Positions 802 through 52,161 of a stretch of DNA of 64,000 nucleotides are shown one piece after another (positions within the stretch are counted from its first letter, which is position 1; the number at the start of each line of letters is the position of its first letter). Where the stretch lies: NCBI RefSeq assembly GCF_050920415.1, contig NZ_CP169309.1; one strand, 5' to 3'. The DNA is from Escherichia coli (GTDB lineage: Bacteria; Pseudomonadota; Gammaproteobacteria; Enterobacterales; Enterobacteriaceae). The notes under the pieces were generated by a model, which saw nothing but the letters and a program-made list of their open reading frames with translations, ran no database searches and had not been told where the DNA came from. A program made the position numbers and the translations under genes.

Positions 802-1701
802 ATGCTCTCTCGACATATCAATTACTTTCTTGCCGTGGCTGAACATGGCAGCTTCACCCGTGCCGCCAGTGCGTTGCATATCTCCCAACCTGCGCTTTCC
901 CAGCAGATTCGCCAGTTAGAAGAGAGTTTGGGCGTACCGCTGTTTGACCGTAGCGGGCGAACGATTCGTCTCACCGATGCGGGAGAAGTCTGGCGACAGT
1001 ACGCCAGCCGTGCGTTACAGGAACTGGGGGCGGGTAAACGGGCGATTCATGATGTTGCCGATTTGACGCGAGGATCGCTGCGCATCGCCGTCACCCCCAC
1101 CTTCACGAGCTACTTTATCGGCCCTTTAATGGCGGATTTCTATGCGCGTTATCCCGGCATCACGCTCCAGCTACAGGAAATGTCACAGGAGAAAATCGAA
1201 GATCTGCTTTGCCGCGACGAGCTGGATGTTGGGATTGCCTTCGCGCCGGTGCATTCGCCGGAACTGGAGGCAATACCTTTACTGACAGAAAGTTTAGCGT
1301 TAGTCGTGGCGCAACATCATCCACTGGCAGACCATGAACAGGTGGCGTTGAGTCGCTTGCATGATGAAAAACTGGTACTGCTCAGCGCGGAATTTGCCAC
1401 CAGAGAGCAAATTGACCACTACTGCGAGAAAGCGGGGCTACATCCACAGGTGGTGATAGAGGCGAACTCAATTAGCGCAGTTCTGGCGCTGATTCGCCGC
1501 ACTTCCCTTTCCACATTGTTGCCAGCAGCGATTGCCACACAACATGACGGGCTTAAAGCTATATCCCTTGCCCCACCGTTACTGGAGAGAACGGCGGTTT
1601 TGTTGCGGCGGAAAAATAGCTGGCAGACAGCCGCCGCGAAGGCATTTTTGCAAATGGCGTTGGATAAATGCGCGGTTGTTGGCGGGAATGAATCGCGGTA
1701 G
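802..1701 (+). CDS. cynR: LysR-family regulator CynR, 299 aa
   Basis: Track ORF 778..1701; start moved to the internal Met ([22 protein letters not shown]...) to match the remembered 299-aa CynR; N-terminal LysR HTH. Confidence 0.85.
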
Positions 1702-1729
1702 CCGCTGACACAGGTCAGCGGCTGGAATT

Positions 1730-1793
1730 GCCTGATGCGGACGCTTATCAGGCCTACGAGTTCAGTGCAAGGCGTTCACGCCGCATCCGACAT
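1730..1793. repeat. REP/BIME element (two inverted REP units) between convergent cynR and codA
   Basis: GCCTGATGCGGACGCTTATCAGGCCTAC and an inverted GGCGTTCACGCCGCATCCG unit seen directly; preceded by a 9-bp GC hairpin at 1702..1723 just after the cynR stop. Confidence 0.8.
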
Positions 1794-1820
1794 AAACTAC
1801 GCTCGCTGCAACCCAGCCGA

Positions 1821-3104
1821 TTACCGTTTGTAATCGATGGCTTCTGGCTGCTCCAGATATACGGTGGTTTGTGCCGGTTGTGTGCTGGCAATCACCTTGC
1901 CGCCACGTACCGAATAACGTACCGGAACCTGACGGCGCAGCGCATCAAATCCATTTTCAGCCGGCAGGATAATCAGGTTGGCGCTGTTTCCGGCGGCAAT
2001 GCCGTAATCCTGCAAATTCAACGTCCTGGCGCTGTGGTGGGTGATTAAATTCAGGCCATCGTTAATCTGCCCGTAGCCCATCAGCTGGCAAACATGCAGC
2101 CCCATATGCAGCACTTGCAGCATATTCGCCGTTCCCAGCGGATACCACGGATCGAAGACATCATCGTGACCAAAGCAGACGTTAATGCCGGACTCCAGCA
2201 TCTCTTTAACGCGCGTAATACCGCGACGTTTTGGATACGTATCGAAACGCCCTTGTAGATGAATATTGACCAGCGGGTTGGCGACAAAGTTAATACCGGA
2301 CATTTTCAGCAAACGGAACAGGCGCGAGGTATACGCCCCGTTATAGGAGTGCATTGCCGTGGTGTGGCTGGCGGTGACTCGCGCGCCCATGCCTTCACGG
2401 TGAGCCAGGGCGGCAACGGTTTCGACAAAGCGCGACTGTTCGTCATCGATCTCATCACAGTGAACATCAATGAGACGGTCGTATTTTTGCGCCAGGGCGA
2501 AGGTTTTATGCAGCGACTCCACGCCATATTCACGGGTAAATTCAAAATGCGGAATCGCCCCCACTACGTCAGCCCCTAAGCGTAACGCCTCTTCCAGCAA
2601 CGCTTCACCGTTGGGATACGACAAAATCCCTTCCTGCGGGAAGGCGACGATTTGCAGATCAATCCACGGCGCGACTTCCTGCTTCACTTCCAGCATTGCT
2701 TTCAGCGCAGTCAGGGTTGCATCCGAAACATCGACATGGGTACGCACATGCTGAATGCCGTTGGCAATCTGCCATTTCAGCGTTTGCCAGGCGCGTTGTT
2801 TCACATCGTCATGGGTTAATAACGCTTTGCGCTCGGCCCAGCGTTCAATGCCTTCAAACAGCGTGCCAGACTGATTCCAGTTCGGTTGCCCGGCGGTTTG
2901 CGTGGTATCCAGGTGAATATGCGGCTCCACAAACGGCGGTAAAACTAAACCTTGCTCGGCATCCAGGCTGTTTTCTGTTACGGGCATCACGCCGGATTGC
3001 GCATCAATGGCGCTGATTTTTCCGTCCTGCAGATGAATCTGCCATAGCCCCTCTTTGCCGGGTAACCGGGCGTTAATAATTGTCTGTAAAGCGTTATTCG
3101 ACAC
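1821..3104 (-). CDS. codA: Cytosine deaminase CodA, 427 aa (GTG start)
   Basis: Track ORF 1821..3119; translation matches CodA (amidohydrolase metal-binding HIHLD motif); start set at the GTG giving [16 protein letters not shown] as remembered for E. coli CodA. Confidence 0.85.
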
Positions 3105-4353
3105 TGTTAGCCTCCACATGCGTCATTGCAGCTGTCGTTTTGCGATTCAAAATCGGGTTAAGGATCAGATAACTCAGCGCACCACCTAATACCGCGTTGA
3201 CCGGAACAATGCCCGGTAACCAGTGGCCTGCGGCAATCCCCAGCGCGACCGCCAGAATCGCCACCCAATTGACACTCATCATACGCGTGGTCGCAAAGTG
3301 CTCATAGCGGCGACGGTTCATCAGATAGTCGGCGATGATCACGCCACCCACCGGAGGAATAGCAGCCGAAAGGAAGGTTAGCCAGCCGACAAAATTGTTA
3401 TACAGCCATAGTGCGCAGACCGTGCCGATAATACCGTTGATTACTGAAAGAGTTTTGCTCGACATACCGGTAATATTGGCGAAACCTAAACCCGACGCAT
3501 AGAGCGCGTTATCGTTGGTGGTCCAGATATTCAACCCCAGCACCACAATCGCGGGCAGCAGCAAGCCCTGAGCAATCATCACATCAGAGATATCCGCCAT
3601 CCCCAGTGCCGCAGCGCCTGCCGCACCGAAAATAAACATCAACGAGTTGCCGAGGAAAAAGGCCACCATCGCCACCAGCACCGCCAGTTTGGCATTGCGA
3701 CCAAAGCGGACAAAGTCAGCGGTGAGCGTACCCGCACTGATAAATGACCCCACAACCAGCGCCAGCGCGACATTGAAATCTAGCGGTTGTGCGGGAACGA
3801 CCGCTTTTAAGGCGTCCAAACCGCCCATGCCGTTAACGGCCAGCCATACGGAATAACCGCCAAGGCAGGCAATCGCCGGAACCGCAATCACCGAAAGTAC
3901 CGTCAGCGCCGAAATGCCAAAGAAGACGGTGACGGTCATCAGTAAACCGGAAACGGCAATCAGCAAATTAATATCCAGCCCGGTTGCCTTGCCCACCGGA
4001 ATAGCAAACATCGCCACGCCAACACCAAACCAGCCGACCTGAGTGCCGCCCAGCAGCAGTGAAGGCAGCCATGAGCCTTTAACACCAAACGAGAAGCGAG
4101 CAAGAAGATGGGTGGTCAGGCCGGTTTTTGCGCCAATGTAACCAAGAAATGAAGTGTAAATACCGAGGAGAAGATTACCGATGAGGACTGCGAGGAAGAA
4201 ATCATGATAGCTAAGACCGGTTCCGAGAGTGCCGCCGGTCCACATACTGGCGGAAAAGAAGGTTAATCCCAGCATGACGAACGTCAATGCCAATACCCCT
4301 TTCCGCGCCGACTGCGGGACTGGCCCCTGGCTAAAGTTGTTATCTTGCGACAC
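3094..4353 (-). CDS. codB: Cytosine permease CodB (NCS1 family), 419 aa
   Basis: Multi-pass hydrophobic protein directly upstream of codA and overlapping its start by 11 nt; length matches CodB. Confidence 0.9.
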
Positions 4354-4419
4354 GAAATTCCCCCTTTTTGCTGTTTGAAACCCAAAAAATCCGCCGCATT
4401 CTATTCATCTGAAGATAAA

Positions 4420-4435
4420 AAGCAATCGTTTTCGT
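4420..4435. promoter_or_regulatory. Candidate PurR box upstream of codB
   Basis: AAGCAATCGTTTTCGT, 13/16 match to the PurR consensus ACGCAAACGTTTGCGT as I recall it, 67–82 bp upstream of the codB start; codBA is known to be PurR-regulated. Confidence 0.4.
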
Positions 4436-4511
4436 GGAGGGGATATATTTTTTATATGGATGAATGCGGAAAAGTGGATAAAAACTTATTTGAGAAAAAA
4501 TGGGTACACAT

Positions 4512-4678
4512 GATAAGACACGCCTGCCTCGCATCAGGCATCTGCGCACAGTGTCGGATGCGGCGCGTGCGCCTTATCCGACCTACGGTTCAGGCCTGTA
4601 GGCATGATAAGACGCGTCAGCGTCGCATCAGGCATCTGCGCACGGTGTCGGATGCGCCACACGACACATCCGACAACG
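4512..4678. repeat. Cluster of REP units (BIME) between codB upstream region and prpE 3' end
   Basis: Several alternating-orientation copies of GCCTGATGCG...CTTATC(A/C)G(A/G)C-type palindromic units seen directly. Confidence 0.8.
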
Positions 4679-4680
4679 CC

Positions 4681-6567
4681 TTACTCTTCCATCGCCTGGC
4701 GGATCTGATCCAACGACGCAGGATCATCAATGGTCGTCAGATCTCCAGGATCGCGTCCTTCGCAAATCGCCTGGATCGTGCGGCGCAGCATTTTTCCGGA
4801 TCGCGTTTTTGGCAATTGCGAGACAAACCAGACGTGCGCCGGGCGACCAAAGTTGCCAATCTGGCTGTCCACCAGCGCCATAATCGCCTTCTCTTGCGAG
4901 TGCGCCACCTCGCGATCTTCCAGGCTATCGCTCTCTTTCGGAATGACAAACGCCACCGCCACCTGCCCTTTCAGCGCATCTTTCACCCCAACCACCGCCA
5001 CTTCAGCAACGCCCGGATGACTGGAGATACTCTCTTCAATCTCGCGTGTGCCAAGCCGATGCCCGGCAACATTAATTACATCGTCAGTACGCCCGAGAAT
5101 AAAGTGATAACCGTCAGCATCGCGGATGCCCCAGTCAAAGGTGGCGTACACCGGACGGGAAAACAGCGACCAGTACGTCTTCACAAAGCGGTCGTCATCG
5201 CCCCAGATGGTTTGAATACACCCCGGCGGCAGCGGCCCTTCCACCACTACCATCCCTTTCTCGTTGACACCGCACGGTTCGCCGGTGACTTCATTGAGCA
5301 ACTGCACGTTGTATCCATACATCGGCACGCCGGGGCTTCCCAGACGTGTCGGCCTGTCGTCCAGACCACGAGCAATCGCCATAATCGGCCAGCCGGATTC
5401 GGTCTGCCAGTAATTGTCGATGACCGGCACATCCAGCGTATTGCTCACCCAACTGGCAGTCGGCTCATCCAGCGGCTCCCCCGCCAGATAGAGCACTTCC
5501 AGCGACGAGAGATCGTGTTTGCGAATTTCAGCGGTAGGGAATTTTTTCAGCACGCGGATGGCGGTCGGCGCTGAGAACATCCGGCTAACCTGATATTTCT
5601 CGACGATTTTCCACCACACACCGCAGTCAGGATAAGTCGGCAATCCTTCGTAAACAATGGTCGCCATCCCCGCCAGCAGCGGCGCGTAGACGATATACGA
5701 ATGCCCCACTACCCAGCCGATATCTGACGCACAGAAGAACACACCGCCCGCTTTGCCACCAAAAATGGTGTCCATTGAGGTCGCCAGCGCCACCGCATAA
5801 CCGCCGACGTCACGCTGTACACCTTTTGGTTTGCCGGTCGTGCCGGAGGTGTAGAGAATGCAGGAGGTTTCGTTGGATTCCAGCCACGCCACCGGCACCC
5901 GCGCGCCGATGTGCTGATGGCGCAATGACGCGAAATCGACATCCCGTCCGGTAACGCGCGCCATTTTCGCCAGCCCGCGATCCACCAGCAAAACGTGGCG
6001 CGGCTGATGCTGCGCCTGACTTATCGCATCGTCGAGCAATTTTTTATAAGGAATGATTTTGCCACCGCGCGCTCCGGCATCTGCCGAGACAATCAGCACC
6101 GGTTTAGCGTCATCAATCCGCGCAGCCACGCTGTGCGAGGCAAATCCACCAAACACTACCGAGTGAATAGCGCCAATGCGCGCGCAGGCCAGCAGGGTAA
6201 TATGCGCTTCGGCAATCATCGGCATATACACCAGCACCCGATCGCCACGCCGTACGCCCAGTGAGCGCAGCATTGACGCCACCGCGTTCACTTCGTCATG
6301 CAACTGGCGAAAGGTAAAAGTGCGCTCTTCTTCTGTTTCCGAAGAGACGGCAATTAATGCCAGCGCCTCTGGCTGTTTCTCCAGCCAGCGGTCGATGGCG
6401 TTGTGGCACAAATTGGTTCGGCCTTCACAAAACCAACGGGCAAACGGCGGATTGCTGTGATCGAGCGTTTGCGTAAAGGGCGTCTGCCAGTCAATACGCC
6501 GGGCCTGCTCGGCCCAGAATTGCTCCGGTTCGTTAATCGAACGCTGATAAAATTCGCTAAAAGACAT
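4681..6567 (-). CDS. prpE: Propionyl-CoA synthetase PrpE, 628 aa
   Basis: Acyl/propionyl-CoA synthetase (AMP-binding motif YTSGTTGKPKG); last gene of the prpBCDE operon; length matches. Confidence 0.9.
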   Translation of the reverse strand: MSFSEFYQRSINEPEQFWAEQARRIDWQTPFTQTLDHSNPPFARWFCEGRTNLCHNAIDRWLEKQPEALALIAVSSETEEERTFTFRQLHDEVNAVASMLRSLGVRRGDRVLVYMPMIAEAHITLLACARIGAIHSVVFGGFASHSVAARIDDAKPVLIVSADAGARGGKIIPYKKLLDDAISQAQHQPRHVLLVDRGLAKMARVTGRDVDFASLRHQHIGARVPVAWLESNETSCILYTSGTTGKPKGVQRDVGGYAVALATSMDTIFGGKAGGVFFCASDIGWVVGHSYIVYAPLLAGMATIVYEGLPTYPDCGVWWKIVEKYQVSRMFSAPTAIRVLKKFPTAEIRKHDLSSLEVLYLAGEPLDEPTASWVSNTLDVPVIDNYWQTESGWPIMAIARGLDDRPTRLGSPGVPMYGYNVQLLNEVTGEPCGVNEKGMVVVEGPLPPGCIQTIWGDDDRFVKTYWSLFSRPVYATFDWGIRDADGYHFILGRTDDVINVAGHRLGTREIEESISSHPGVAEVAVVGVKDALKGQVAVAFVIPKESDSLEDREVAHSQEKAIMALVDSQIGNFGRPAHVWFVSQLPKTRSGKMLRRTIQAICEGRDPGDLTTIDDPASLDQIRQAMEE

Positions 6568-6606
6568 AATGCTCTCCTGTTGAACTTACGCCTTACCGCC
6601 GTTTAC

Positions 6607-8058
6607 TTAAATGACGTACAGATCGAGATACTCATTGACCGGCATCTGTTCCAGGCGAGCTCTGTCGAGAGAAACGTCCAGAATGCGCTGCTGCTGTCGA
6701 GTCGGGAACTGGCGCGCGAGGTTGATTTTGAATTTATCGACCAGTTTTGGAATACCGTCCTGACGGCGGCGAGCATGACCAATTGGGTACTCCACCACCA
6801 CTTCTTCAAAGCGCGTGCCGTCGGTGAACTCAAGGGTAATGGCATTGGCGATGGCGCGTTTTTCCGGGTCGTGGTAGTCAGCGGTAAATGCCGGATCTTC
6901 AAAGCAATTGATCTTCTCGCGCAGGGTGTCGATGCGTTTATCTTGCGCAAGGTTGTCTTCGTAATCTGCCGCCGTTAAGCGCCCGAATAGCAGCGGGATC
7001 GCCACCATGTACTGAATGCAGTGGTCGCGGTCTGCCGGGTTATTGAGCGGCCCTTTTTTGTCGATGATGCGAATACAGGCTTCGTGGGTGCGAATGGTCA
7101 CTTTTTCGATATCTGCCGCCGTTTTGCCTGCTGCCTGCATCTGTTCATAGAGCGTCATCGCCGCTTCAACTGCCGTCTGGGAGTGGAACTCCGCCGGGAA
7201 GGAGATTTTGAACAGCACATTTTCCATGACGTAGGAACCGTACGGACGCTGGAAGCGGAACGATTCACCTTTAAAGGAGACGTCGTAGAAGCCCCATACC
7301 GGCGCAGTCAGAGCTGACGGGTAACCCATTTCGCCCGTTTTCGCCATCAGCGCCAGACGTACCGCGCGGGACGTGGCATCGCCCGCCGCCCAGGATTTAC
7401 GCGTGCCGGTGTTCGGTGCATGACGATAGGTGCGCAGCGACTGTCCGTCTACCCATGCCAGCGAAACGGCGTTGAGGATTTCATCACGGGTCAGGCCAAG
7501 CATTTCGGCGACCACGGCGGTGGAAGCCACTTTCACTAACAGAACGTGGTCAAGGCCGACGCGATTAAAGGAGTTTTCCAGCGCGATGCAGCCCTGAATT
7601 TCATGGGCTTTAATCATTGCGGTCAGCACCTGTTTCATGGTCAACGGCGCTTTGCCGCTGGCGACCGCGTTGCGTGAAAGCCAGTCTGCCGTTGCCAGAA
7701 TACCGCCGAGGTTGTCGGAAGGATGGCCCCACTCCACCGCCAGCCAGGTATCGTTGAAATCGAGCCAGCGGATCATCGCGCCAATGTTAAATGCCGCCTG
7801 GACGGGGTCGAGCTGGAACTGAGTTCCGGGGACGCGTACGCCGTTAGGTACAACGGTGCCGGGGACAATTGGCCCCAACAGTTTTTTACAGGCCGGGTAT
7901 TCGAGAGCTTCCAGACCGCAGCCGAGGGTGTCGAGCAGGCAGTAATGGGCGGTGTCATAGGCCACTCTGGAGCTGATTTCGTAGTTCATGACGTAATCGA
8001 CAATATCAATAATTTCGCGGTCGAATTCCGGGCGGATGTTGTTGATTTGAGCTGACAT
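6607..8058 (-). CDS. prpD: 2-Methylcitrate dehydratase PrpD, 483 aa
   Basis: MmgE/PrpD-family protein in conserved prp operon position. Confidence 0.9.
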
Positions 8059-8091
8059 TGGGTACGTTTCCTTCTTGTTATTCGTAGAGGT

Positions 8092-9261
8092 TTACTGGCG
8101 CTTATCCAGCGCGACAAACTGGCGGTCTTCAGGGCCAACATAATTGGCGGAAGGACGGATAATTTTGTTGTCCTGACGTTGTTCGATAATGTGCGCCGCC
8201 CAGCCGGTGACGCGGGCGATAACAAACAGTGGCGTGAACATCTCGGTGGGAACGCCCATCATGTTGTAGGAAACAGCGGAGAACCAGTCGAGATTGGGGA
8301 ACATTTTTTTGCTCTCCCACATTACCGTTTCCAGGCGATCGGCGATGTTGTACATCTTCAGCGAGCCGCCTTCCTGCGAGAGCTGCTTCGCCACTCGTTT
8401 AATCACCTGATGACGCGGGTCGGCGATGGTATAAACCGGATGCCCAAAACCAATCACCACTTCTTTGTTTTCAACCCGCTTGCGGATATCAGCTTCGGCT
8501 TCGTCCGGCGTTTCATAGCGTTGCTGGATCTCCAGCGACACTTCATTCGCCCCGCCGTGTTTCGGCCCGCGCAGTGCGCCAATCGCGCCGATAATGGCTG
8601 AATACATGTCAGAGCCGGTGCCCGCAATCACCCGGCTGGTAAAGGTGGAGGCGTTAAACTCGTGTTCGGCGTACAGCACCAGCGAAATATGCATCGCCTT
8701 TTCCCAGCTTTGCGACGGCTTTTCGCCGTGCAGCAAATGCAGGAAGTGACCGCCGATGGAGTCGTCATCGGTTTCCGGCTGGATGCGTTCGCCGTTGTGG
8801 CTGTAGTGATACCAGTAGAGAAGAATCGAGCTAAGCGACGCTAATAATTTGTCGGCAATATCCCGCGCGCCGGAAACGGTATGCCCCTCTTTTTCTGGCA
8901 GCGTGCAGCCGAGCGCGGAAACCCCGGTGCGCATAACATCCATCGGGTGCGACGCCGCTGGTAAGGCTTCCAGCACGGTACGCACGTTAGCCGGTAAACC
9001 GCGCAGGGCTTTCAGTTTTGTTTTGTAAGCGGCGAGTTCGTCACGGGTCGGCAGTTTGCCATGGATCAGCAGATGCGCCACTTCTTCAAATTCGCAATGT
9101 TCCGCCAGATCAAGAATATCGTAGCCGCGGTAATGCAGGTCATTGCCGCTTTTACCCACCGTACACAGCGCCGTATTGCCCGCCGGAACGCCAGAAAGTG
9201 CCACAGATTTTTTCGGTTTAATGACATGGGTACTGTTTTGCAGGATCGTTGTGTCGCTCAT
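8092..9261 (-). CDS. prpC: 2-Methylcitrate synthase PrpC, 389 aa
   Basis: Citrate-synthase-family protein in prp operon. Confidence 0.9.
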
Positions 9262-9302
9262 GTTGTCCTCGTCATTGTTATCATTTGTAGGGTCGAGAAT
9301 GT

Positions 9303-9400
9303 TGTCGGATGCGACGCTATGCGTCTTATCCGACCTACAGTTCAGTTCATCCCGTAGGCCTGATAAGCCGCGTCAGCGGCGCATCAGGCATCGGTTGTCG
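9303..9400. repeat. REP/BIME element in the prpB–prpC spacer
   Basis: Inverted REP units (…GTAGGCCTGATAAG…GCATCAGGCA…) seen directly. Confidence 0.75.
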
Positions 9401-9423
9401 AATACAACCAACGGGCGTTTGTT

Positions 9424-10314
9424 TTATTTCGTCTGGCTACGGGCAAACAGGTCGTCGAGCTTTTCTTCGTACTGGTAGTAGTTAATGCTTTCATACAGCT
9501 CGTTGCGGGTCTGCATGGTGTCGATGACGCTTTTCTGCGTGCCTTCCTGGCGCAGGACATTGTAGACATGTTCAGCGGCGCGGTTCATTGCGCGGAAAGC
9601 AGAAAGGGGATACAGCGCCATTGCGACATGGGCGCTGCGTAATTCGTCGGTGGTAAACAGCGGCGTGGCACCAAATTCAGTAATGTTGGCAAGGATCGGC
9701 ACCTGCACCGCATCGGCAAACTGGCGGTACATGGCGAGTTCGGTAATTGCTTCCGGGAACAACATCTCGGCACCCGCTTCAACATAGGCCTGCGCACGCT
9801 CGAGCGCCGCATCCAGCCCTTCAACCGCCAGCGCATCGGTGCGCGCCATGATCACAAAATCAGGATCGGTTTTCGCATCCACCGCCGCGCGGATCCGATC
9901 CACCATTTCTTCTTTTGAAACGATCGCTTTGTTCGGACGATGTCCGCAGCGTTTTGCTCCAACCTGATCTTCAATATGTAAGCCCGCCGCACCGGCTTTA
10001 ATCATCGATTTCACGGTGCGGGCAACGTTAAAGGCCGAAGAGCCAAAACCGATATCCGCATCCACCAGCAGCGGCAGCGAGCAGACGTCGGTGATACGAC
10101 GAATATCAGTCAGCACATCATCAAGAGTAGAAATACCGAGATCCGGCAACCCCAGCGAACCTGCCGCCACACCACCGCCGGAGAGATAAATCGCCTGATA
10201 TCCGGCACGCTGCGCCAGCAGCGCATGGTTGGCGTTAATGGTGCCGACAATCTGCAATGGATTTTCTTTAGACAGTGCAGCGCGAAACGCTTTACCTGGA
10301 GAGTGTAGAGACAT
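9424..10314 (-). CDS. prpB: 2-Methylisocitrate lyase PrpB, 296 aa
   Basis: PEP-mutase/isocitrate-lyase-family protein; first gene of prpBCDE. Confidence 0.9.
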
Positions 10315-10360
10315 AGCCCATCCTTTGTTATCAACTTGTTATTTACGTTGATAAACTCAG

Positions 10361-10376
10361 AGCAAGGGGTGTGCCA
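10361..10376 (-). promoter_or_regulatory. Sigma-54 (-24/-12) promoter of prpBCDE
   Basis: On the minus strand reads TGGCAC-N5-TTGCT, a near-perfect sigma-54 consensus, about 50 bp upstream of the prpB start and adjacent to the sigma-54 activator gene prpR. Confidence 0.7.
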
Positions 10377-10552
10377 CAATTACCTGGATGAAATTAAATG
10401 TTTTATTTCAATTTGTTATAGATAAAGCCATGAAGTAATCCGCAAATATGCGTTTCAGTTAACGTTTCAGGCAATGTTTCACTGCGTTTCATTGCAACAA
10501 TTATGAAACAAGACTAAACCCATTATTCGGTTTCTTAACTTTGCGGTGCGCT

Positions 10553-12139
10553 ATGGCACATCCACCACGGCTGAATGACGACAAACCGGTTATCTGGACG
10601 GTATCTGTAACGCGGCTGTTCGAGCTATTTCGCGATATCAGCCTCGAGTTTGATCACCTGGCAAACATTACTCCTATCCAGCTTGGCTTTGAAAAAGCAG
10701 TGACCTACATCCGCAAAAAACTGGCCAGCGAACGCTGCGACGCCATCATTGCCGCTGGCTCTAACGGTGCGTACCTGAAAAGCCGCCTGTCGGTACCGGT
10801 GATTCTGATAAAACCGAGTGGCTATGATGTGTTACAGGCACTGGCAAAAGCTGGAAAACTCACCTCTTCTATCGGCGTTGTCACCTATCAGGAAACCATT
10901 CCGGCACTGGTAGCGTTTCAAAAAACCTTTAATTTGCGCCTCGACCAACGTAGCTACATTACCGAAGAAGACGCACGTGGGCAGATTAACGAGCTAAAAG
11001 CCAACGGCACCGAAGCGGTGGTCGGCGCGGGGCTGATTACCGATCTGGCAGAAGAAGCCGGAATGACCGGAATTTTTATCTATTCTGCCGCCACCGTGCG
11101 CCAGGCATTTAGCGATGCGCTGGATATGACGCGCATGTCGTTACGCCATAATACTCACGATGCCACCCGCAACGCCCTGCGTACTCGTTACGTGCTGGGC
11201 GATATGCTCGGTCAATCACCACAGATGGAACAGGTACGGCAGACTATTTTGCTGTATGCCCGCTCCAGTGCGGCGGTGTTGATTGAAGGGGAAACGGGGA
11301 CGGGCAAAGAGCTGGCGGCCCAGGCGATTCATCGGGAATATTTTGCCCGCCACGATGCGCGACAGGGCAAAAAGTCACATCCGTTTGTTGCCGTCAACTG
11401 CGGGGCGATTGCTGAATCTCTGCTGGAAGCGGAGCTGTTTGGCTATGAGGAAGGGGCGTTTACCGGCTCGCGACGCGGAGGACGCGCCGGGCTGTTTGAA
11501 ATCGCCCACGGTGGCACGCTGTTTCTTGACGAGATAGGCGAAATGCCGCTGCCGTTGCAGACCCGGCTGCTGCGGGTGCTGGAAGAAAAAGAGGTCACCC
11601 GCGTCGGCGGGCATCAGCCTGTTCCGGTGGATGTGCGGGTTATTAGCGCCACTCACTGCAATCTCGAAGAGGATATGCAGCAAGGGCGTTTTCGCCGTGA
11701 TCTGTTTTATCGACTGAGTATTTTGCGTCTGCAATTGCCGCCGCTACGCGAGCGGGTGGCGGATATTCTGCCGCTGGCGGAAAGCTTTTTGAAAGTGTCA
11801 CTGGCGGCACTTACTGCGCCGTTTTCTTCCGCGTTACGTCAGGGATTACAGGCAAGTGAAACTGTGCTGTTGCGCTACAACTGGCCGGGAAATATTCGTG
11901 AACTGCGCAATATGATGGAACGACTGGCGCTATTTTTAAGTGTGGAACCGACGCCGGATTTAACGCCGCAATTTTTGCAGTTGCTACTGCCGGAACTGGC
12001 GCGCGAGTCGGCGGAAACTCCCGGTCCATGCTTACTGACGCCACAACAGGCACTGGAGAAATTTAATGGCGATAAAACAGCCGCGGCGAATTATTTAGGT
12101 ATCAGCCGAACGACATTCTGGCGGCGGCTGAAAAACTGA
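10553..12139 (+). CDS. prpR: Sigma-54-dependent transcriptional activator PrpR, 528 aa
   Basis: Track ORF 10541..12139; AAA+ sigma-54 interaction domain ([14 protein letters not shown] motifs) and C-terminal HTH; start set at [13 protein letters not shown] to match the remembered PrpR. Confidence 0.9.
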
Positions 12140-12236
12140 AATGCCGAATCCAGCGCGAACGCCTTATCCGGCATAAATTTCAATAGATGATCACCGATAA
12201 ACTTACGCATCGGGCATGTTTACATGGGGTGCAGAA

Positions 12237-12512
12237 TTATTTCTTCTTATAAATATTTGCCGTGCCGTGGATCTTATTGTCAGTTTGACCAGAGGTCAGC
12301 ACCAACACATCTGCCCCTTTTTCATCCGCTTTTTTGATCAGATCTTCTTTCGCATCTGCAGTCGACATTTCATTACTGGTTGAAATATCACCTATTTTTT
12401 CATATTGCGATGCAACTTTTTCAAATTCTGCTTTGGTCATTAATTCTGCGGCATAAACGTTGGTAACGGCAAACGCTAACGCACCGATTAACATTTTAGA
12501 GATTATTTTCAT
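12237..12512 (-). CDS. yahO: DUF1471 (YhcN/YdgH-family) periplasmic protein YahO, 91 aa
   Basis: Signal peptide followed by a DUF1471-like sequence ending GTANIYKKK; matches remembered YahO. Confidence 0.8.
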
Positions 12513-22931: not shown

Positions 22932-22940
22932 CTTACGTCC

Positions 22941-23891
22941 TTACGTTTTAATAATATGGGTGCCCGTCTCGCCACGCAGCGCCGCGGGCAGGCATTCCGG
23001 CGTGGTGATAATCACTTCTTTACCGCCCTGTTCCAGGAACGTCAGGCTGGCGATGATTTTTGGCAACATGCTGCCTGGCGGGAAATGCCCTTCCTGCATA
23101 TAGCGGGTCATGGTGGCAATATCCACCCGATCCAGCGCCTGCTGCTGCGGTTTGCCAAAATGAATACACACTTTTTCGACGCCGGTGGTGATCACCAGAA
23201 TGTCGGCGTGAATTTCGCGGGCCAGCAGCGCGGTGGAGAGATCTTTGTCGATAACCGCGTCCACGCTTTGGTAATCTCCCGCGTCAGTACGCACCACCGG
23301 AATTCCGCCACCGCCCGCACCAATCACCACAAACCCTTGTTGGATCAGCGCTTTAATGGCAGGTGCTTCAACAATACGTTTCGGTTCCGGCGAGGCGACC
23401 ACGCGGCGATAGCCGCGTCCGGCATCTTCAACAAAACGCCAGTCAGGGTTTGCCTTTTGAAATTCGTTACGCTGGCTTTCACTGAAGAATGCGCCAATGG
23501 GCTTGGTGGGGTGAGCAAATCCCGGATCGTTTTTATCCACTTCCACCTGAGTCACCACGGTGACGGCTTTTTTCTCGCCGTGGCGCGCCAGCCGATTGTT
23601 CAGCGCCTGTTGGATCAAGTAGCCAATGCCGCCTTGCGTATCCGCCACACAGTTCGCCAGCGGCGTTAAGGGCAGCCCTTCGCGCTCGTGGGCAATCTCC
23701 GCGCGGCGTAAATCCAGCCCGACCTGCGGCCCGTTGCCGTGGGTCAGCACAATGTCGTAATCGGAAGCCAGCATTTCCAGCACCGTATCGGCGACGGCCT
23801 TCACCGCCTCCGCCTGATGCTCAATCGACTGGCTGGCGTTATCTTTGATAATGCTGTTGCCACCAATGGCAACGACCACAAGTTCTTTCAT
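22941..23891 (-). CDS. yahI: Carbamate kinase-like protein YahI, 316 aa
   Basis: Amino-acid-kinase fold typical of ArcC carbamate kinases (VVAIGGNS…, GGGGIPV motifs). Confidence 0.85.
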   Translation of the reverse strand: MKELVVVAIGGNSIIKDNASQSIEHQAEAVKAVADTVLEMLASDYDIVLTHGNGPQVGLDLRRAEIAHEREGLPLTPLANCVADTQGGIGYLIQQALNNRLARHGEKKAVTVVTQVEVDKNDPGFAHPTKPIGAFFSESQRNEFQKANPDWRFVEDAGRGYRRVVASPEPKRIVEAPAIKALIQQGFVVIGAGGGGIPVVRTDAGDYQSVDAVIDKDLSTALLAREIHADILVITTGVEKVCIHFGKPQQQALDRVDIATMTRYMQEGHFPPGSMLPKIIASLTFLEQGGKEVIITTPECLPAALRGETGTHIIKT

Positions 23892-23941
23892 GTTGTTATG
23901 TCCGCTACAGAGGGTGATGGGGTTATGACCAACGCCAAATT

Positions 23942-24021
23942 GCCTGATGCGCTACGCTTATCAGGCCTACAGATTCTTGCGCCACTCGTAGGCCGGATAA
24001 GGCGTTCACGCCGCATCCGGC
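23942..24021. repeat. REP/BIME element in the yahI–yahG spacer
   Basis: GCCTGATGCGCTACGCTTATCAGGCCTAC plus an inverted GGCGTTCACGCCGCATCCGGCA unit; the small track ORF 23888..24124 overlaps it and is probably not coding. Confidence 0.8.
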
Positions 24022-24044
24022 AGAGACAACGCGCACTTTGCAGG

Positions 24045-25463
24045 TCAGACGCCGTAACGTTCGCACCAGCCAAGAATGGCTTTTTCGAAGCAGGCGAATG
24101 GTGGATGCACAATGCCCGCGCCAATCATGCCGACGCCCGCATCTTTATGGGCAATGGCGGTGTTGATCACCGGCAGAATGCCACTGCTACCCACGCGGGT
24201 GATGTCGATTGCCGTCGGCACACCCATAAAACCGAGCAGCGGAATGGTCACGTTGGGGTTTTCGCCGAGGGTGATTTCGCGCATCTGACGGGAGAAATCG
24301 ATAGCCTCTTCCACCGTACCGCCCACCAGCGCGACGATTGCAGGCGCGGTCGCCATAGCAAATCCACCAATGCCGTAGGTTTCGGTGATGGCGCTGTCGC
24401 CAATATCCAGCCCCGAATCTTCCGGCTTATAACCGGCAAACATCGGGCCGATGACCTGTTGCGCCGGGCCGGTAAACCACTGCCCCGGCAGGCCGCTGAC
24501 TCGCAGGCCGAACTCGACACCGTTACGCGCCATGGTGGTCACCACGGTGCTGTATTCAATGCCGTGCGCCGCATCCATCGCTGCTTTACACATTGCCATC
24601 CACGTCGGGCCGGAGAAGTAATCGCTGCTGGCGACAAACTCAAACACTTCGCGCTGTTGCTCGACGGAATAACCCGCCTGAATAATCCCCGGCGTCAGCG
24701 CCTGAATCAGCAGCGTCGTCCCGGCGTTATTGCGGTTATGGCATTCATCGCCCATATGCAGCGCCTGCGCCAGCATTAAGCGCAGATCAATCTCACCGAG
24801 AATCTTCATTGCGTCGCGCAGCATGGGCCCCTGCACATCGCGCATCCAGTTCAGGCGGTCAATCACGCTCTGATCGTTAGCGCCCATACGCAAAATCTTC
24901 GCCATCTGCTCGCTCATGTTGGTGTAAGCGATGTTGCCGTAGGTTTTGTTTTTCACGATGTGCATAAACATCGAGGCCGAGGTAACACCCGCCATCGAAC
25001 CCACGCAGTCGTGTTCGTGGCACGGCGAGAAAGTGATCTCCCCGGAGGCCGCCAGTTCAGCCGCCTCGTCAAGATCTTTCGCCAGTCCTTCGAACACCAG
25101 CGCCCCGGTGACCGCGCCTTTCATCGCGCCGCACATTTTTTCCCAGGTCACTGGTGGCCCGGCGTGAAGAATGGTTTTCGGCGTCATACCCGGCACCACG
25201 TTAATCGCCTGATCAAAACCAATCAGCACCGGATGCGACTGGATAATCCGCTCCAGCGCCTGCTGGTTAGCGGCGGCGATTTTGTCTGCCAGCGGCGAAT
25301 CGGCAATGTTATCCAGCGCCTGCACCACCTGCATATTGCCCTGCCCCGGCGGCGTCCAGTCGAGTTGGGTCACTTCTACATGCTGCTTTTTCAGATCATC
25401 GCTAAACATAGCGATGCCGACATTAATAACGTTCAACGGTTGGCTAAACAGTGACTGGCTCAT
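24045..25463 (-). CDS. yahG: DUF1116-family protein YahG, 472 aa
   Basis: Start set at MSQSLFSQPL…, giving a TGATG stop/start overlap with yahF. Confidence 0.8.
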   Translation of the reverse strand: MSQSLFSQPLNVINVGIAMFSDDLKKQHVEVTQLDWTPPGQGNMQVVQALDNIADSPLADKIAAANQQALERIIQSHPVLIGFDQAINVVPGMTPKTILHAGPPVTWEKMCGAMKGAVTGALVFEGLAKDLDEAAELAASGEITFSPCHEHDCVGSMAGVTSASMFMHIVKNKTYGNIAYTNMSEQMAKILRMGANDQSVIDRLNWMRDVQGPMLRDAMKILGEIDLRLMLAQALHMGDECHNRNNAGTTLLIQALTPGIIQAGYSVEQQREVFEFVASSDYFSGPTWMAMCKAAMDAAHGIEYSTVVTTMARNGVEFGLRVSGLPGQWFTGPAQQVIGPMFAGYKPEDSGLDIGDSAITETYGIGGFAMATAPAIVALVGGTVEEAIDFSRQMREITLGENPNVTIPLLGFMGVPTAIDITRVGSSGILPVINTAIAHKDAGVGMIGAGIVHPPFACFEKAILGWCERYGV

Positions 25464-27010: not shown

Positions 27011-27863
27011 AATTCCCTCCGTAGGTTTGGCTCAGCGCACAACCATCGGCCATGCCATACAGCATGTCGCAGCCGGAACTGGAGCCAATATGTTTAATTT
27101 TTTCTATTGCCTGAGTTGCGTTCCCAGGTATGTCATAAATAATGTTATGAATAAAACGATGAATATTTTCCCGGCAGCGTTGTTGTAATGCGGCTTCCAG
27201 CGTTATGGCACTTAATAACGTGGTATTATTTCTGCCGCGTTGCAGACCGAGATAAAATTCCTCTTTGTATTTTTCCGCCGGATGCCCGGGAATAAATGAA
27301 ATAAGCGCCAGACCTGTTAAATAATCATCGGCTGATGGTGTAAGGCCAATCCCTAACCCCATCATACTGACGACCGCTGAGGCGATATTTTGTTTATCGT
27401 TTACGGCCTGAATAACTGCCCGTCGTTTAATATGTAATTCTTTTTTTAATGCCTGATAGAACGGGTTATCGCCACAATAATTAAACAGGGTTTCATTTTC
27501 CCCCAGGTGTTGATGAATAATGTCGTGCCACTGTTGCCAGGCGATAAGGTGAAAATTTTCAGCGGTCATTTGCAAAGCTGGGGACAGCCAACGCTGGCAA
27601 TGACTCATCTCTATATGAAGATGTTGACCAACCGTAATACCTTGATCATCAAACTGAACCTTATCACCATGACGGAACAGACCATCAAAGTGAGTGAGTG
27701 CCAACCGACAACTGTTTGGCGCATTGTCGTACTCTTCACAAAGCAGTGTCAGCAACTGCTGGCGGGCCGGAAGTGCGATATTTACCGCTCTGGCAAAGAC
27801 CTGTTCAACCTGTCCTTGCCCCCGCTGCGCCAGAAAATCAGCATCCGCAGTTAGCGCCCACAC
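27000..27863 (-). CDS. yahE: DUF2877-family protein YahE, 287 aa
   Basis: Conserved position upstream of yahF, overlapping reading frames. Confidence 0.75.
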   Translation of the reverse strand: MWALTADADFLAQRGQGQVEQVFARAVNIALPARQQLLTLLCEEYDNAPNSCRLALTHFDGLFRHGDKVQFDDQGITVGQHLHIEMSHCQRWLSPALQMTAENFHLIAWQQWHDIIHQHLGENETLFNYCGDNPFYQALKKELHIKRRAVIQAVNDKQNIASAVVSMMGLGIGLTPSADDYLTGLALISFIPGHPAEKYKEEFYLGLQRGRNNTTLLSAITLEAALQQRCRENIHRFIHNIIYDIPGNATQAIEKIKHIGSSSGCDMLYGMADGCALSQTYGGNYVS

Positions 27864-31403: not shown

Positions 31404-31769
31404 ATGATTGATGTCTTAGGGCCGGAGAAACGCAGACGGCGTACCACACAGGAAAAGATCGCAATTGTTCAGCAGAGCTTTGAACCGGGGATGACGGTCT
31501 CCCTCGTTGCCCGGCAACATGGTGTAGCAGCCAGCCAGTTATTTCTCTGGCGTAAGCAATACCAGGAAGGAAGTCTTACTGCTGTCGCCGCCGGAGAACA
31601 GGTTGTTCCTGCCTCTGAACTTGCTGCCGCCATGAAGCAGATTAAAGAACTCCAGCGCCTGCTCGGCAAGAAAACGATGGAAAATGAACTCCTCAAAGAA
31701 GCCGTTGAATATGGACGGGCAAAAAAGTGGATAGCGCACGCGCCCTTATTGCCCGGGGATGGGGAGTAA
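31404..31769 (+). CDS. insC: IS2 OrfA (InsC), 121 aa, HTH protein
   Basis: [40 protein letters not shown]… matches remembered IS2 InsC; overlaps insD in the -1 frame (programmed frameshift arrangement). Confidence 0.85.
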
Positions 31770-32632
31770 GCTTAGTCAGCCGTTGTCTCCGGGTGTCGCG
31801 TGCGCAGTTGCACGTCATTCTCAGACGAACCGATGACTGGATGGATGGCCGCCGCAGTCGTCACACTGATGATACGGATGTGCTTCTCCGTATACACCAT
31901 GTTATCGGAGAGCTGCCCACGTATGGTTATCGTCGGGTATGGGCGCTGCTTCGCAGACAGGCAGAACTTGATGGTATGCCTGCGATCAATGCCAAACGTG
32001 TTTACCGGATCATGCGCCAGAATGCGCTGTTGCTTGAGCGAAAACCTGCTGTACCGCCATCGAAACGGGCACATACAGGCAGAGTGGCCGTGAAAGAAAG
32101 CAATCAGCGATGGTGCTCTGACGGGTTCGAGTTCTGCTGTGATAACGGAGAGAGACTGCGTGTCACGTTCGCGCTGGACTGCTGTGATCGTGAGGCACTG
32201 CACTGGGCGGTGACTACTGGCGGCTTCAACAGTGAAACAGTACAGGACGTCATGCTGGGAGCGGTGGAACGCCGCTTCGGCAACGATCTTCCGTCGTCTC
32301 CAGTGGAGTGGCTGACGGATAATGGTTCATGCTACCGGGCTAATGAAACACGCCAGTTCGCCCGGATGTTGGGACTTGAACCGAAGAACACGGCGGTGCG
32401 GAGTCCGGAGAGTAACGGAATAGCAGAGAGCTTCGTGAAAACGATAAAGCGTGACTACATCAGTATCATGCCCAAACCAGACGGGTTAACGGCAGCAAAG
32501 AACCTTGCAGAGGCGTTCGAGCATTATAACGAATGGCATCCGCATAGTGCGCTGGGTTATCGCTCGCCACGGGAATATCTGCGGCAGCGGGCTTGTAATG
32601 GGTTAAGTGATAACAGATGTCTGGAAATATAG
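31727..32632 (+). CDS. insD: IS2 OrfB (InsD) transposase with DDE/integrase core, 301 aa
   Basis: IS3-family transposase catalytic domain; length matches InsD. Confidence 0.85.
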
Positions 32633-32643
32633 GGGCAAATCCA

Positions 32644-32762
32644 ATTAGCAGCTTGAGTAAAAGCCGTTCTTTTTCGGACACGATACCAGGCAAGGTCAAA
32701 TTAACCGTTGCCCCGAACTCTTCCAAAAAAACACTCAAATCATGCGAAGCCATTGAACACAC
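32644..32762 (-). pseudogene. pdeL: pdeL (yahA) 5' fragment (first ~39 codons, start of the LuxR-type HTH)
   Basis: Minus-strand ORF starting at 32762 reads MCSMASHDLSVFLEEFGATVNLTLPGIVSEKERLLLKLL and then runs into the IS2 right end. Confidence 0.7.
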
Positions 32763-32894
32763 CTTGATGAAATCTTGTGCGCCAGCTAAATCTGCTTGTC
32801 TTCACTCTAACTGATAAAGCTGACTGCAAGAAAATGACACAGAGAGCCGAATTATCTCCCGTTCGGCTCTCTCTCCTTTTACTCATTATTCAGA

Positions 32895-35800
32895 TCAGAA
32901 TTGCCACTTAATGCCCACCATTGCAGAGGTGTCATTATATCCTCTATCGGCAACCTGAACGCCCACATTCCCCCAGACATTCAGGTTGGCATTTAGCTGT
33001 CCTTCCACCCCGGTTTTTATCTCAGCAATATTGCGGGCTCCATCCTGAGTGACGGACACGCCATCCATACTGGTGCTGAAATCCTTACTGTTATGCAGCC
33101 AGTTCACTTCTACAAACGGCTGGAACTCGCGGGATTTACTGTCATCCATTTTATGGTGGCTCTTCAGCCAGGTTTTTACGCCAAGTCGGGTTTGAACATT
33201 GCCATCACCGTTGCTATGAACGAGGGTTCCGTTGCTTTCGCGGTGATTATCGGCTTTGACTCCCATCCAGGTAACCTGTGCTTGCGGCTGAACATACCAT
33301 TCATTACGCGTTCCCTGGCTGCCATTAAATTCAGCTAATTTGTGTTTGTATCCAGCTTCCAGTGACGCGGTAAATCCTTTTGATTTATAGGATTCACTTT
33401 GTAAGTCATCCCCTTTCACTGTGTTATCAAACCAACTGTACTGCGCCCAACTGTCGAGATACGCGCCATTACGCGACTCGTCATCGGCATACCAGGTGGC
33501 ATAGAGGCCTGTGCTATATCCGTTCACACTCGCTTTTGCACGATAACCAGTGCGCGAGGAGGTCGTTTTGCTGTCGCTGTTGCCATATCCCGCCATGACC
33601 CCAATATGCCAGCGATCGCTGTCGTTTTGGCTCCACTGCGCGATATCGCCTCCCAGTTGCAGAACATAGCGATTGCTTTGGGTTTTCAGCTGGCCGCTGC
33701 CATCACGCCATTTATTATGACCCCCTTCATGGCGCATCCACATACTGGTTTGTTTCTGCTCACCCGTCACCATGTCGGTATAGTATGTATTTCCCAGACG
33801 CTCATGCAGACGCGTGTTGAACATGGTATTCGCTGCTGCAAGGTTCGCAATGTAGCTACCCGCCTCCGGTCGCAGGTCATTATCCACATTCAGATCCGGA
33901 CCCGGCGTAGGTGTCGGGTTAGGGTTCGGCTCTGGATTCGGGTTTGGCTCCGGATTCGGCATCGGGTCTGGCTCCGGCTGCAGTTCAGGAGAATCACTGC
34001 CGCTGGTCAGATACCAGTTACCACTATTTGCCCCTTGTCCACGCGCGAGAGTGTAGTCATATGCCCCCGCAACGATACGCCCAGCCTGAACAAATTCGCC
34101 CTCAGACTTACCGTCAACATGGATAAGTTCGATACCGTTAAGGGTTTTCGCACCTGTACCGCCAGCGTTATTCACCGTAACGGCAGTCGTGCCGCTAGTA
34201 TCGCCCTCGACAACCAATTTATCAGTTACTGAATCATCGCCATTCAGTACCGTATTCATTACCAGTTGGCCGTTATTACCGTAGTAGTTCCCCTTCACCA
34301 CCAACACGTTGCCAGCTTGCAGTCCTGACATCCCGGTCATCAGCGTACCGTTGTTGGTCAGATTGCCACCCAGGGTGTAATTCACTGGTGCAGCCGCTCT
34401 TTTTTCAGCGCTATTATTCAGCGCCAGGGTGCCGTTGTTCTCAATGTTTGCGTTACCCATTCCCTGCGCATGACTAACCAGGACATTAGCCGAGCTAGCA
34501 ATGTTCACATTCGCCGTCAGGTTGCTATTATCGCCCGCGATATCCAGCGTGCCGCCCTGAATATTCAGCTCTCCGCTTCCCGTTAACGAACCGGTTGAAG
34601 TGCCCCCGTTGGTAACCGTCAGACTCCCGCCGTTCAAGCTCAGCAGTGAATCGGCGCTGCCATTGAGCGTGCCCACGATCTGGCTGTGACCATTCATATC
34701 CAGTTCAGTCTCTGCCGCCAGACGCAGTTCATGGGTATTACCCAACACGTTATCGTTATTCAACAAAAGCGTCCCGCTGCGCAGATCGGTAATACCGGTA
34801 TAGTCGTTGTCTTTGTTAGAAAGCGATACGGTCTGACCTTTCTGGCTGCTGAAAGCCAGGTCACCACTGCCGGTAATCTTTGCACTAAGATCGGCGGCAT
34901 TCTCGCTCTTACCGTTGGCACTCAGCACCAGGGCATCACTGTCGGTAGCCTGCAATTCAAGCTGGGTCAGGCCGTAACCGATATACAGACCGTCATTGTT
35001 TACCCCACTCGTCAGACGATAGTCGTAAGTGCCGACGGCCGCTTTTTGCCCATTCTGCTGAATATCACGTTGGGCGCTGCTGGAGAGGATTTGCCCATTT
35101 TTATCCTGCAATTGCAGATTGCCCGCATCGCCCAGAACTTCCGCACCTTGCGCATCAACCAACTTAATGGTGCTGTTACCATCATCGACTTCAGTGAGCG
35201 ATAACGCAGAGTCAATATCACGAGATACTGAGCGGACAACGTCACTGTCAGAAACCTCAATCACACCCTCGCCGCGCAAATCCAGCGTTTTACTAACGTT
35301 GACTGTCCCTTCTGTCATCTGCGCGCCAGCGGTCAGGGCACCAAAATCAACGGTTCCGCCCGAGAATCCCAGAGTGCTAATGGAGTGAGCGCCCTTACCC
35401 ACTGTTATCTGGCTTCCCTGACCCGCAGTGATCCCGCCTTTCTGCAGAAACTCAGCATTTTTTTCCAGGTTAAATGTCGTGTTCTGGAATGCCAGTGCCC
35501 CCTGAAACCAGTCTGTATAAGCAAACTCATCGAAGGAGAATTCGTGATTCCCCATGTTTATTTCAACAACGCCTTTACCTTCAAGATCGTTATCAAACAC
35601 CCAATCTTTATTGGCATTAATTTGCAGTTTGCCATCAACATCCAGTTCTGCACGGCCGATGTTCTTATCTTCAGAAATAACAGCGACAGCATCGGAAGCG
35701 ACATCAATATATCCGCTGAATGCATAGTTATTGCCGATCAACTCCACCGTCCCACTGTCGATACTTATTGTACCGTTGCCGGAAATCTTATTGGCAAAGG

Positions 35801-48384: not shown

Positions 48385-48609
48385 ACCAGACTCCTGAGTG
48401 GTTTTTGATTACAAACACCAACAATCTTAGACAATAATTAATCTAATACCATCAAATGGTTAATCATGATTTTTGTTTTGTGATTCTGATTAAGAAAAAG
48501 AAAATACCAGACGATAAGACAAAATATCAAGCGTTGTGAAGAAATGTTATTTGCTATTTTGCGTCTATAGTCATGATGTCAAATGAACGCGTTTCGACAG
48601 GAAATCATC

Positions 48610-49935: not shown

Positions 49936-50043
49936 ACTCAAAATCAGACGCCAGGACAAATATTCTGGCGTCTCAGAGAAAAGAATCTTATTAATTCCTT
50001 GTTATTATATAACTTCTTAATCACTTCATTGATGGTATTTTAT

Positions 50044-50280
50044 ATGTTTAAAAAACCTGTTTTATTTGCAACACTATTATCTGGCGTTATGGCATTTTCC
50101 ACCAATGCAGATGATAAAATAATTCTGAAACATATCAGCGTCTCGTCAGTATCAGCATCACCGACAGTTCTGGAGGATGCCATTGCTGATATAGCCAGAA
50201 AATATAATGCTTCATCCTGGAAAGTCACATCGATGCGAATTGATAATAATTCAACCGCAACAGCAGTATTGTATAAATAA
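50044..50280 (+). CDS. rclB: DUF1471 periplasmic protein RclB (YkgI), 78 aa
   Basis: Signal peptide MFKKPVLFATLLSGVMAFSTNA followed by a DUF1471-like domain; start set at the internal Met. Confidence 0.75.
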   Translation: MFKKPVLFATLLSGVMAFSTNADDKIILKHISVSSVSASPTVLEDAIADIARKYNASSWKVTSMRIDNNSTATAVLYK

Positions 50281-50291
50281 GGATGTTCACA

Positions 50292-50885: not shown

Positions 50886-51044
50886 TAATCCGAACACTGT
50901 CTGTTGTTCACTTTTTCAGGCGTCAGGCTCCCTTTCTGATGATGAAGCCTGACGCCATATTACCGGAGATATGACAGAGTGAAGATCAATATCACTCCCC
51001 TGTTAAAAGATTCTTGTCGTCTCAGGTAAAATAAGTGATTAATA

Positions 51045-51929: not shown

Positions 51930-52161
51930 TAGGTATGAACAATGAGTCTACGTTAAAACGTAACCTCAAATTAGTATGTGGATTTTGATATCACTTATGC
52001 AAAAAATTCATTAATAATGTAGGACTGAAACCTCTCTATTTTTGGGGCAATGAAGCAGACGCTATCAGTGCTTTTGCCTTGGGACTTGCTGTTTTTGATA
52101 CACTTAGGGCCCAGGACATAACGAAAATGTGCGATATGACAAAGAATTAACGGTGAATGTG

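Follow-up and report, generated by a model that had tools for sequence, protein, structure and literature searches.

The window analysed here, a stretch of 64,000 nucleotides, is a part of the Escherichia coli chromosome that contains the cynTSR–codBA–prpBCDE/prpR–yah region, and its first 24 kb carries four clusters of short palindromes, located in the spacers cynR–codA, prpE–codB, prpB–prpC, and yahG–yahI. These clusters are canonical E. coli repetitive extragenic palindromic (REP) elements, with Y-, short-Z-, and long-Z-type palindromic units organized in bacterial interspersed mosaic elements (BIMEs). This family of elements has been known since the 1980s. Gene coordinates were taken from the RefSeq annotation of NZ_CP169399.1 (E. 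coli MFDS1022581), which is 100% identical to bases 1-24100 of the window (from 3,887,529); essentially every complete E. coli genome contains sequence homologous to these bases.

Reading of the sequence together with unit alignment resolved ten palindromic units in the four clusters, confirming the clusters at the coordinates given in a preliminary description of this DNA. Their assignment to the REP/BIME family in that description was also correct, since the units matched the published Y, short-Z, and long-Z consensus; the published E. coli REP consensus sequences are GCCGGATGCGGCGTAAACGCCTTATCCGGCCTAC, GCCTGATGCGCTACGCTTATCAGGCCTAC, and GCCTGATGCGACGCTGGCGCGTCTTATCAGGCCTAC (PMC11208160), and the unit lengths are 35 nt for y, 29 nt for z1, and 37 nt for z2 (PMC8266576). 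An nhmmer profile was built from the ten units and run on the whole window, and the E-values given below are from this search. The units are as follows.

1730-1757, plus strand: unit 1a, short-Z (z1) with an intact CTAC tail; 27/29 to the short-Z consensus; E = 9e-4.
1761-1791, minus strand: unit 1b, Y type, from which the 3' arm and the GTAG tail are gone; E = 1.8e-4.
4506-4539, minus strand: unit 2a, long-Z (z2) with a degenerate tail, the unit nearest to codB; E = 3.9e-5.
4553-4586, plus strand: unit 2b, Y variant (GTCGGATG...CATCCGAC) with a CTAC tail; 28/34; E = 1e-7.
4598-4633, minus strand: unit 2c, long-Z (z2); 34/36 to the consensus; E = 2.6e-7.
4647-4674, plus strand: unit 2d, Y-derived degenerate hairpin without the GTAG tail; E = 1.8e-3.
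9304-9338, plus strand: unit 3a, Y variant, located 42 nt before the prpC start codon; 28/34; E = 1.2e-7.
9354-9389, minus strand: unit 3b, long-Z (z2), 34 nt past the prpB stop codon; 33/36; E = 4.8e-7.
23942-23970, plus strand: unit 4a, short-Z (z1), an exact match (29/29).
23988-24021, minus strand: unit 4b, canonical Y, 23 nt past the yahG stop codon; 33/34; E = 6.7e-8.

A search for REP motifs across the window, which the preliminary description had proposed as a check, bore out this assignment. The tail motif CTTATCMGRCCTAC was matched eight times against 0.59 expected, a number that none of 100 shuffled sequences reached, and the head motif was matched 23 times (7.6 expected). The profile found all ten units again with E-values from 1e-7 to 2e-3, and detected no REP between 24.1 and 64 kb; its sole further match with E < 0.6 was a decayed unit at 12153-12175 (see below). 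A search of the whole window against Rfam gave no matches at the gathering threshold, a result that is neutral for REP identity. The tetranucleotide GTAG/CTAC was kept in seven of the ten units (1a, 2b, 2c, 3a, 3b, 4a, and 4b). Units 2b and 3a both represented the GTCGGAT variant of Y, while units 1b, 2a, and 2d were degenerate, together with the decayed unit (62-79% match to the consensus). In unit 1b, the loss of the 3' arm and GTAG was due to a 16-nt deletion relative to K-12.

The orientation alternated between units, which is the architecture of a BIME. Clusters 1, 3, and 4 were tail-to-tail doublets, with linkers of 15 nt in cluster 3 and 17 nt in cluster 4, and cluster 2 consisted of four alternating units joined by 13-nt head-to-head and 11-nt tail-to-tail linkers. 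As a query, the 80-nt cluster 4 matched 5425 of the 5426 complete E. coli genomes, the median number of places per genome being at least 38 (at least 40 places in 2230 records); among the matches listed, at least 183,897 places were chromosomal versus at least 136 on plasmids.

Two further features require separate description.

12143-12176, plus strand: relic REP, a decayed single Y-type unit (GCCGAATCCAGCGCGAACGCCTTATCCGGCATAA); 27/34 to the Y consensus; E = 5.6e-3.
1702-1723, strand not assigned: hairpin with a perfect 9-bp stem (GCCGCTGAC-ACAG-GTCAGCGGC), directly after the cynR stop codon.

The relic lies 3 nt past the prpR stop codon in the convergent prpR/yahO spacer and carries no GTAG; its counterpart in K-12 is annotated as REP24. 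It had been overlooked in the earlier list of clusters, which was otherwise right for all four. The hairpin, on the other hand, was considered as a REP unit and rejected, because it occurs only once in each genome of the E. coli collection and is specific to this locus. The span that had been set to begin at position 1702 therefore takes in a single-copy hairpin that is not REP, and the REP units proper begin at 1730.

The positions of the clusters relative to genes were assessed from the RefSeq annotation, in which prpD is also present between prpE and prpC.

802-1701, plus strand: cynR.
1821-3104, minus strand: codA.
3094-4353, minus strand: codB.
4681-6567, minus strand: prpE (stop codon at 4681-4683).
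8092-9261, minus strand: prpC (start at 9261).
9424-10314, minus strand: prpB (stop codon at 9424-9426).
10553-12139, plus strand: prpR.
12237-12512, minus strand: yahO.
22941-23891, minus strand: yahI.
24045-25463, minus strand: yahG.

It had been proposed that all clusters fall between convergent genes or between operons. This holds for cluster 1, located between the convergent genes cynR and codA, and for cluster 2, located between prpE and codB where prpBCDE ends and codBA starts, but not for the other two. Since prpBCDE has been reported to form one operon dependent on sigma-54 and PrpR (PMC5566544), cluster 3 (9304-9389), between the prpB stop codon and the prpC start codon, is inside a single operon. 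An exact sigma-54 consensus, TGGCACACCCCTTGCT, was found at 10361-10376 (minus strand) between the divergent genes prpR and prpB, upstream of the latter; it was the only one in the window, and its position is consistent with the known control of prpBCDE by PrpR and sigma-54. As for cluster 4, yahG and yahI are co-directional, and a scan of their spacer yielded neither a promoter-like nor a terminator-like site, so that an operon boundary cannot be asserted there. In a census of all window spacers of at least 30 bp, REPs were borne by 3 of the 26 tandem, 2 of the 8 convergent, and none of the 10 divergent spacers. All units were in spacers between annotated coding sequences, each downstream of a stop codon; unit 2d, for example, starts (on the mRNA strand) 6 nt past the prpE stop codon, as it does in K-12. 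A more accurate rule is that REPs are extragenic and lie downstream of a stop codon, rather than that they mark operon boundaries, and this census agrees with the published description of REPs as elements associated with the 3' untranslated region (3' UTR).

In such positions, each cluster will be transcribed as a 3' UTR or an intercistronic region. The predicted RNA folds of the transcribed strand were -77.7 kcal/mol for cluster 2 (z = -5.8), -59.1 kcal/mol for cluster 3 (z = -7.3), and -47.5 kcal/mol for cluster 4 (z = -2.7); the 3' end of cynR, including the hairpin at 1702-1723, gave -44.6 kcal/mol (z = -4.1). Intact units were predicted to form hairpins with an internal mismatch, such as ((((((((.((((....)))).)))))))) for unit 4b, while units 2b and 2c would pair as one long hairpin and unit 2d would form a 13-bp stem. 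As GC-rich stem-loops just past stop codons, these hairpins might be taken for ordinary Rho-independent terminators that mark operon ends. However, no T/U tract follows any of them, a terminator scan of the five REP-bearing spacers detected no intrinsic terminator (no hairpin followed by a U tract), and one cluster is within an operon whose downstream genes, prpCDE, need to be expressed; an identity as such terminators is thus highly improbable.

All of these sites have counterparts in K-12, where they are already catalogued. The K-12 names, taken from the supplement of Harris et al. 2026 (bioRxiv 10.64898/2026.03.23.713779), are REP24 (prpR/yahO, convergent, 346825-346854), REP25 (prpB/prpC, tandem, 349606-349970), REP26 (prpE/codB, tandem, 354600-354770), and REP28 (cynR/codA, convergent, 357685-357763). 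In K-12 MG1655, REPs were found in the same five spacers, with the same unit types, orientation, and position relative to stop codons. The two strains differed in copy number: K-12 contains eight units (four doublets) at each of prpB–prpC and yahG–yahI, compared with one doublet each in the window, and its codA–cynR block is duplicated, whereas that of the window is a single copy with the 16-nt deletion in its Y unit. The K-12 duplication at codA–cynR is in tandem and of approximately 200 bp (27476-27800 of the K-12 locus), and in it the final ~75 bp of cynR are repeated along with the locus-specific hairpin and the Y/Z doublet.

Copy number also varied among other strains. At prpB–prpC, the doublet is missing from strain 492, which has an empty 44-bp spacer, and among 60 evenly spaced genomes, the spacer was of the window type in ~27%, empty in ~38%, and expanded as in K-12 in ~33%. 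At yahG–yahI, there were no doublets in JNE25-003 and two in CEA601S, in addition to the one in the window and four in K-12. At prpE–codB, the spacer of strain N96 was 94 bp shorter than that of the window and contained one doublet fewer. In the yahI–yahG spacer of JNE25-003, the REP doublet is replaced by an unrelated short GC-rich palindromic sequence (…GCCCCTCTCCCCAGAAGGGAGAAGGG…; ~338-395 of its locus), which may belong to another small repeat family.

Taken as a whole, the clusters are very probably best explained as canonical REPs/BIMEs, orthologous to those of K-12, that would stabilize mRNA and cause partial termination. Most likely, the REPs at these loci act as transcribed hairpins, by analogy with REPs studied elsewhere. 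Based on the literature, GC-rich REP hairpins, once transcribed, would block 3'-to-5' exonucleases and stabilize the upstream message, and would also cause partial, largely Rho-dependent termination of read-through. From these published activities and the positions in the window, the joint result would be an expression tilted toward the upstream gene: prpB over prpCDE and yahG over yahI, with prpE insulated from codBA.

One of the closest known systems is REP325 of the yjdMN operon, which functions as a partial Rho-dependent terminator and a stabilizer of upstream mRNA. REP325, the sequence of which was read from K-12, consists of 12 units in the yjdM–yjdN spacer, with alternating Z2 (the long-Z form) and Y units; it belongs to the same family, with units 2c and 3b resembling its Z2 and unit 4b its Y, and its tandem-gene context is the same as that at prpB–prpC and yahG–yahI. 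In contrast, REP325 contains six doublets and its terminator/stabilizer activity was measured directly, while the clusters in the window contain one or two doublets and are known from their sequence. Furthermore, a genome-wide bias toward upstream expression was reported for tandem gene pairs with a REP, and REP26 of K-12, the counterpart of cluster 2, overlaps a sense-strand Rho-utilization (rut) peak (Harris et al. 2026, bioRxiv 10.64898/2026.03.23.713779).

Binding sites for DNA gyrase, integration host factor (IHF), HU, or DNA polymerase I, which would organize supercoiling domains or the nucleoid, represent a different type of action, at the level of DNA. Such roles have been proposed for BIMEs in the literature, but Harris et al. 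2026 observed neither contacts between REPs nor an influence of REP325 on nucleoid compaction. Moreover, the IHF consensus WATCAANNNNTTR was absent in and near all clusters, and its three matches elsewhere in the window were at the chance level. A DNA-level role is therefore improbable at these sites, and assignment to the IHF-binding BIME subclass (BIME-1/RIP/RIB) was rejected for the same lack of an WATCAANNNNTTR match.

Work by Liang, Rudd and Deutscher from 2015 reportedly deals with transfer-messenger RNA (tmRNA) and REPs located no more than 15 nt from a stop codon, and may be relevant to prpE, with its first hairpin 6 nt past the stop codon.

REPs are thought to be processed and spread in trans by a single-copy RayT (TnpA_REP), which acts on GTAG and the hairpin (PMC8266576). 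The inverted REP doublets of the window, with GTAG next to the palindrome, have the form of a substrate for TnpA_REP, as in the REPIN/RAYT system (REPtron). This system differs, however, in that no rayT is adjacent to the REPs described here: a tblastn search with K-12 RayT gave no significant match in the window. In K-12, rayT maps to 247.6 kb, flanked by yafL and lfhA, and a distance of ~92-110 kb separates it from the K-12 REPs that correspond to those described here. In this strain, the corresponding slot (yafL–flhA/lfhA) holds a hicA/hicB toxin-antitoxin pair (NZ_CP169399.1, 4096938-4097565) and adjoins an intact lateral-flagellar (Flag-2) cluster. The strain itself probably lacks rayT. 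By sensitive blastn, rayT was detectable in 3575 of the 5426 complete E. coli genomes, and those without it (34%) still carried the REP family, which is found in 5425/5426. As rayT goes undetected in such strains, current changes in copy number would more likely arise there by slippage or recombination between tandem doublets than by transposition.

These observations bear on a further possibility, namely, that the elements, although genuine REPs, are neutral in function where they lie here. In that case, they would be decaying remnants of a RayT-mobilized non-autonomous family (REPINs) with no selected effect on neighboring genes, tolerated in spacers and altered by slippage, recombination, and deletion. 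The doublet numbers described above, which appear free to vary (0/1/4 at prpB–prpC, 0/1/2/4 at yahG–yahI, with N96 having one fewer at prpE–codB), the degenerate or truncated state of several units, and the failure to detect rayT in 1851 of the 5426 genomes, with hicAB in the syntenic slot of this strain, are all in its favor. On the other hand, neutrality does not readily account for the strict confinement of the units to transcribed spacers downstream of stop codons or for the published upstream-biased expression around REPs, and strong hairpins affect any transcript that contains them. We regard neutrality as possible but rather doubtful.

Several other points also weigh against a regulatory role. 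The GTAG tail was lost in units 1b, 2a, and 2d as well as in the relic at 12143-12176, and this relic was predicted to fold no better than shuffled sequence (z = -0.09). The yahG–yahI spacer was free of REPs in ~12% of genomes; together with the empty 44-bp prpB–prpC spacers in the 60-genome sample, this indicates that the REPs at both sites, missing in sizeable fractions of genomes, are dispensable. Harris et al. 2026 reported a large variance between loci and no general effect on half-life, and the regulatory effect proposed for each locus is one that we infer for this strain. In spite of these points, action as transcribed hairpins, with stabilization of the upstream mRNA and partial termination, is the reading that we prefer.

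Some of the units are also targets of a mobile element. The 11-nt sequence ATCAGGCCTAC, published as the natural target of the insertion sequence IS621 and located in REP elements (PMC11208160), was found as exact matches at 1747-1757 (plus strand) in unit 1a, at 9354-9364 (minus strand) in unit 3b, and at 23960-23970 (plus strand) in unit 4a. All three share the exact target with the natural IS621 sites but differ from them in being unoccupied. In strain N96, which is 99.7% identical over the region, an IS621 (IS110 family, with a bridge-RNA recombinase) is inserted between cynR and codA in unit 1a, at 1756-3035 of the N96 locus (1755/1756 in the window). At its junctions, ATCAGGCCT is followed by TGTATTATCC on one side and CAGTATCT by ACGAGTTC on the other, giving an insertion at ATCAGGCCT^AC, that is, at the CT core of ATCAGGCCTAC in unit 1a. 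Any unit in which ATCAGGCCTAC is intact is also a natural site of IS621 insertion.

The repeats also account for small open reading frames (ORFs), as had been suggested for one of them.

23888-24124, minus strand: small ORF of 78 aa with a TTG start, spanning the REP doublet and overlapping the 3' end of yahG.

This ORF is unannotated in the identical RefSeq record, showed no Pfam or NCBIfam match above the cut-offs, and did not align with YahH of K-12; it is most likely spurious. The K-12 gene yahH (b0322; 9770-10090 of the K-12 locus) is itself wholly within the expanded array of four tandem BIME copies, and YahH is a 34-aa periodic peptide (VNALSGLR.A.ESVGLISVAHQAF...) in the frame of another small ORF of the window (23923-24066), so that yahH is probably an annotation artifact. 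That these three ORFs encode real small proteins is extremely improbable: the ORFs exist, yahH is annotated in K-12, and the Prokaryotic Genome Annotation Pipeline (PGAP) carries "protein YahH" into many genomes, but there are no Pfam/NCBIfam matches, YahH corresponds to a periodic read-through of four tandem BIMEs, and the length and frame of the ORFs shift with the repeat number. The ORF is also gone in strains without the REPs, in addition to being uncalled in the identical record.

Outside the repeats, several other features of the window were noted. At 16153-21250, between yahK and yahJ, are four genes for an ABC (ATP-binding cassette) transporter of the sugar/AI-2 (autoinducer-2) type and a gene for an ASCH-domain protein; these genes are not in K-12, where yahJ adjoins yahK. 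At 31559-35542, between pdeL and betT, is ehaA, a large autotransporter adhesin gene, while the K-12 interval contains only the tiny yahV. At 48477-60807, rclA is split by an island of ~12.3 kb, the products of which include an integrase, an Icd-like protein, a primase, a single-stranded DNA-binding protein (SSB), a major capsid protein, a head decoration protein, a head-tail connector, and a PerC-like regulator. This island looks like a capsid-encoding phage satellite, similar to a phage-inducible chromosomal island (PICI) or P4; no convincing attachment-site direct repeats were found flanking it. At 63514-64000, a frameshifted transposase gene of IS2 (IS3 family) continues past the end of the window.

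As a discovery, these REPs carry little weight, since the family is long known and the sites are catalogued in K-12. Their value for annotation is that they account for spurious small ORFs, among them the one behind the widely propagated name yahH, indicate three ready insertion sites for IS621, and mark spacers of strain-variable length. A more far-reaching but unlikely proposal is that the BIME inside prpBCDE functions as a heritable expression dial, being absent from approximately one third of the sampled genomes, a single doublet here, and four doublets in K-12. Each additional doublet would then confer stronger stabilization of prpB mRNA and weaker read-through into prpCDE. If this were true, lineages would differ in the stoichiometry of PrpB to PrpC, in propionate flux, and in the accumulation of 2-methylcitrate without any change in coding sequence or promoter, and the same logic could also hold for yahG–yahI. 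With a copy number that varies among strains, the REP array of prpBCDE would provide a natural test case for the tuning of intra-operon stoichiometry by REP dosage.

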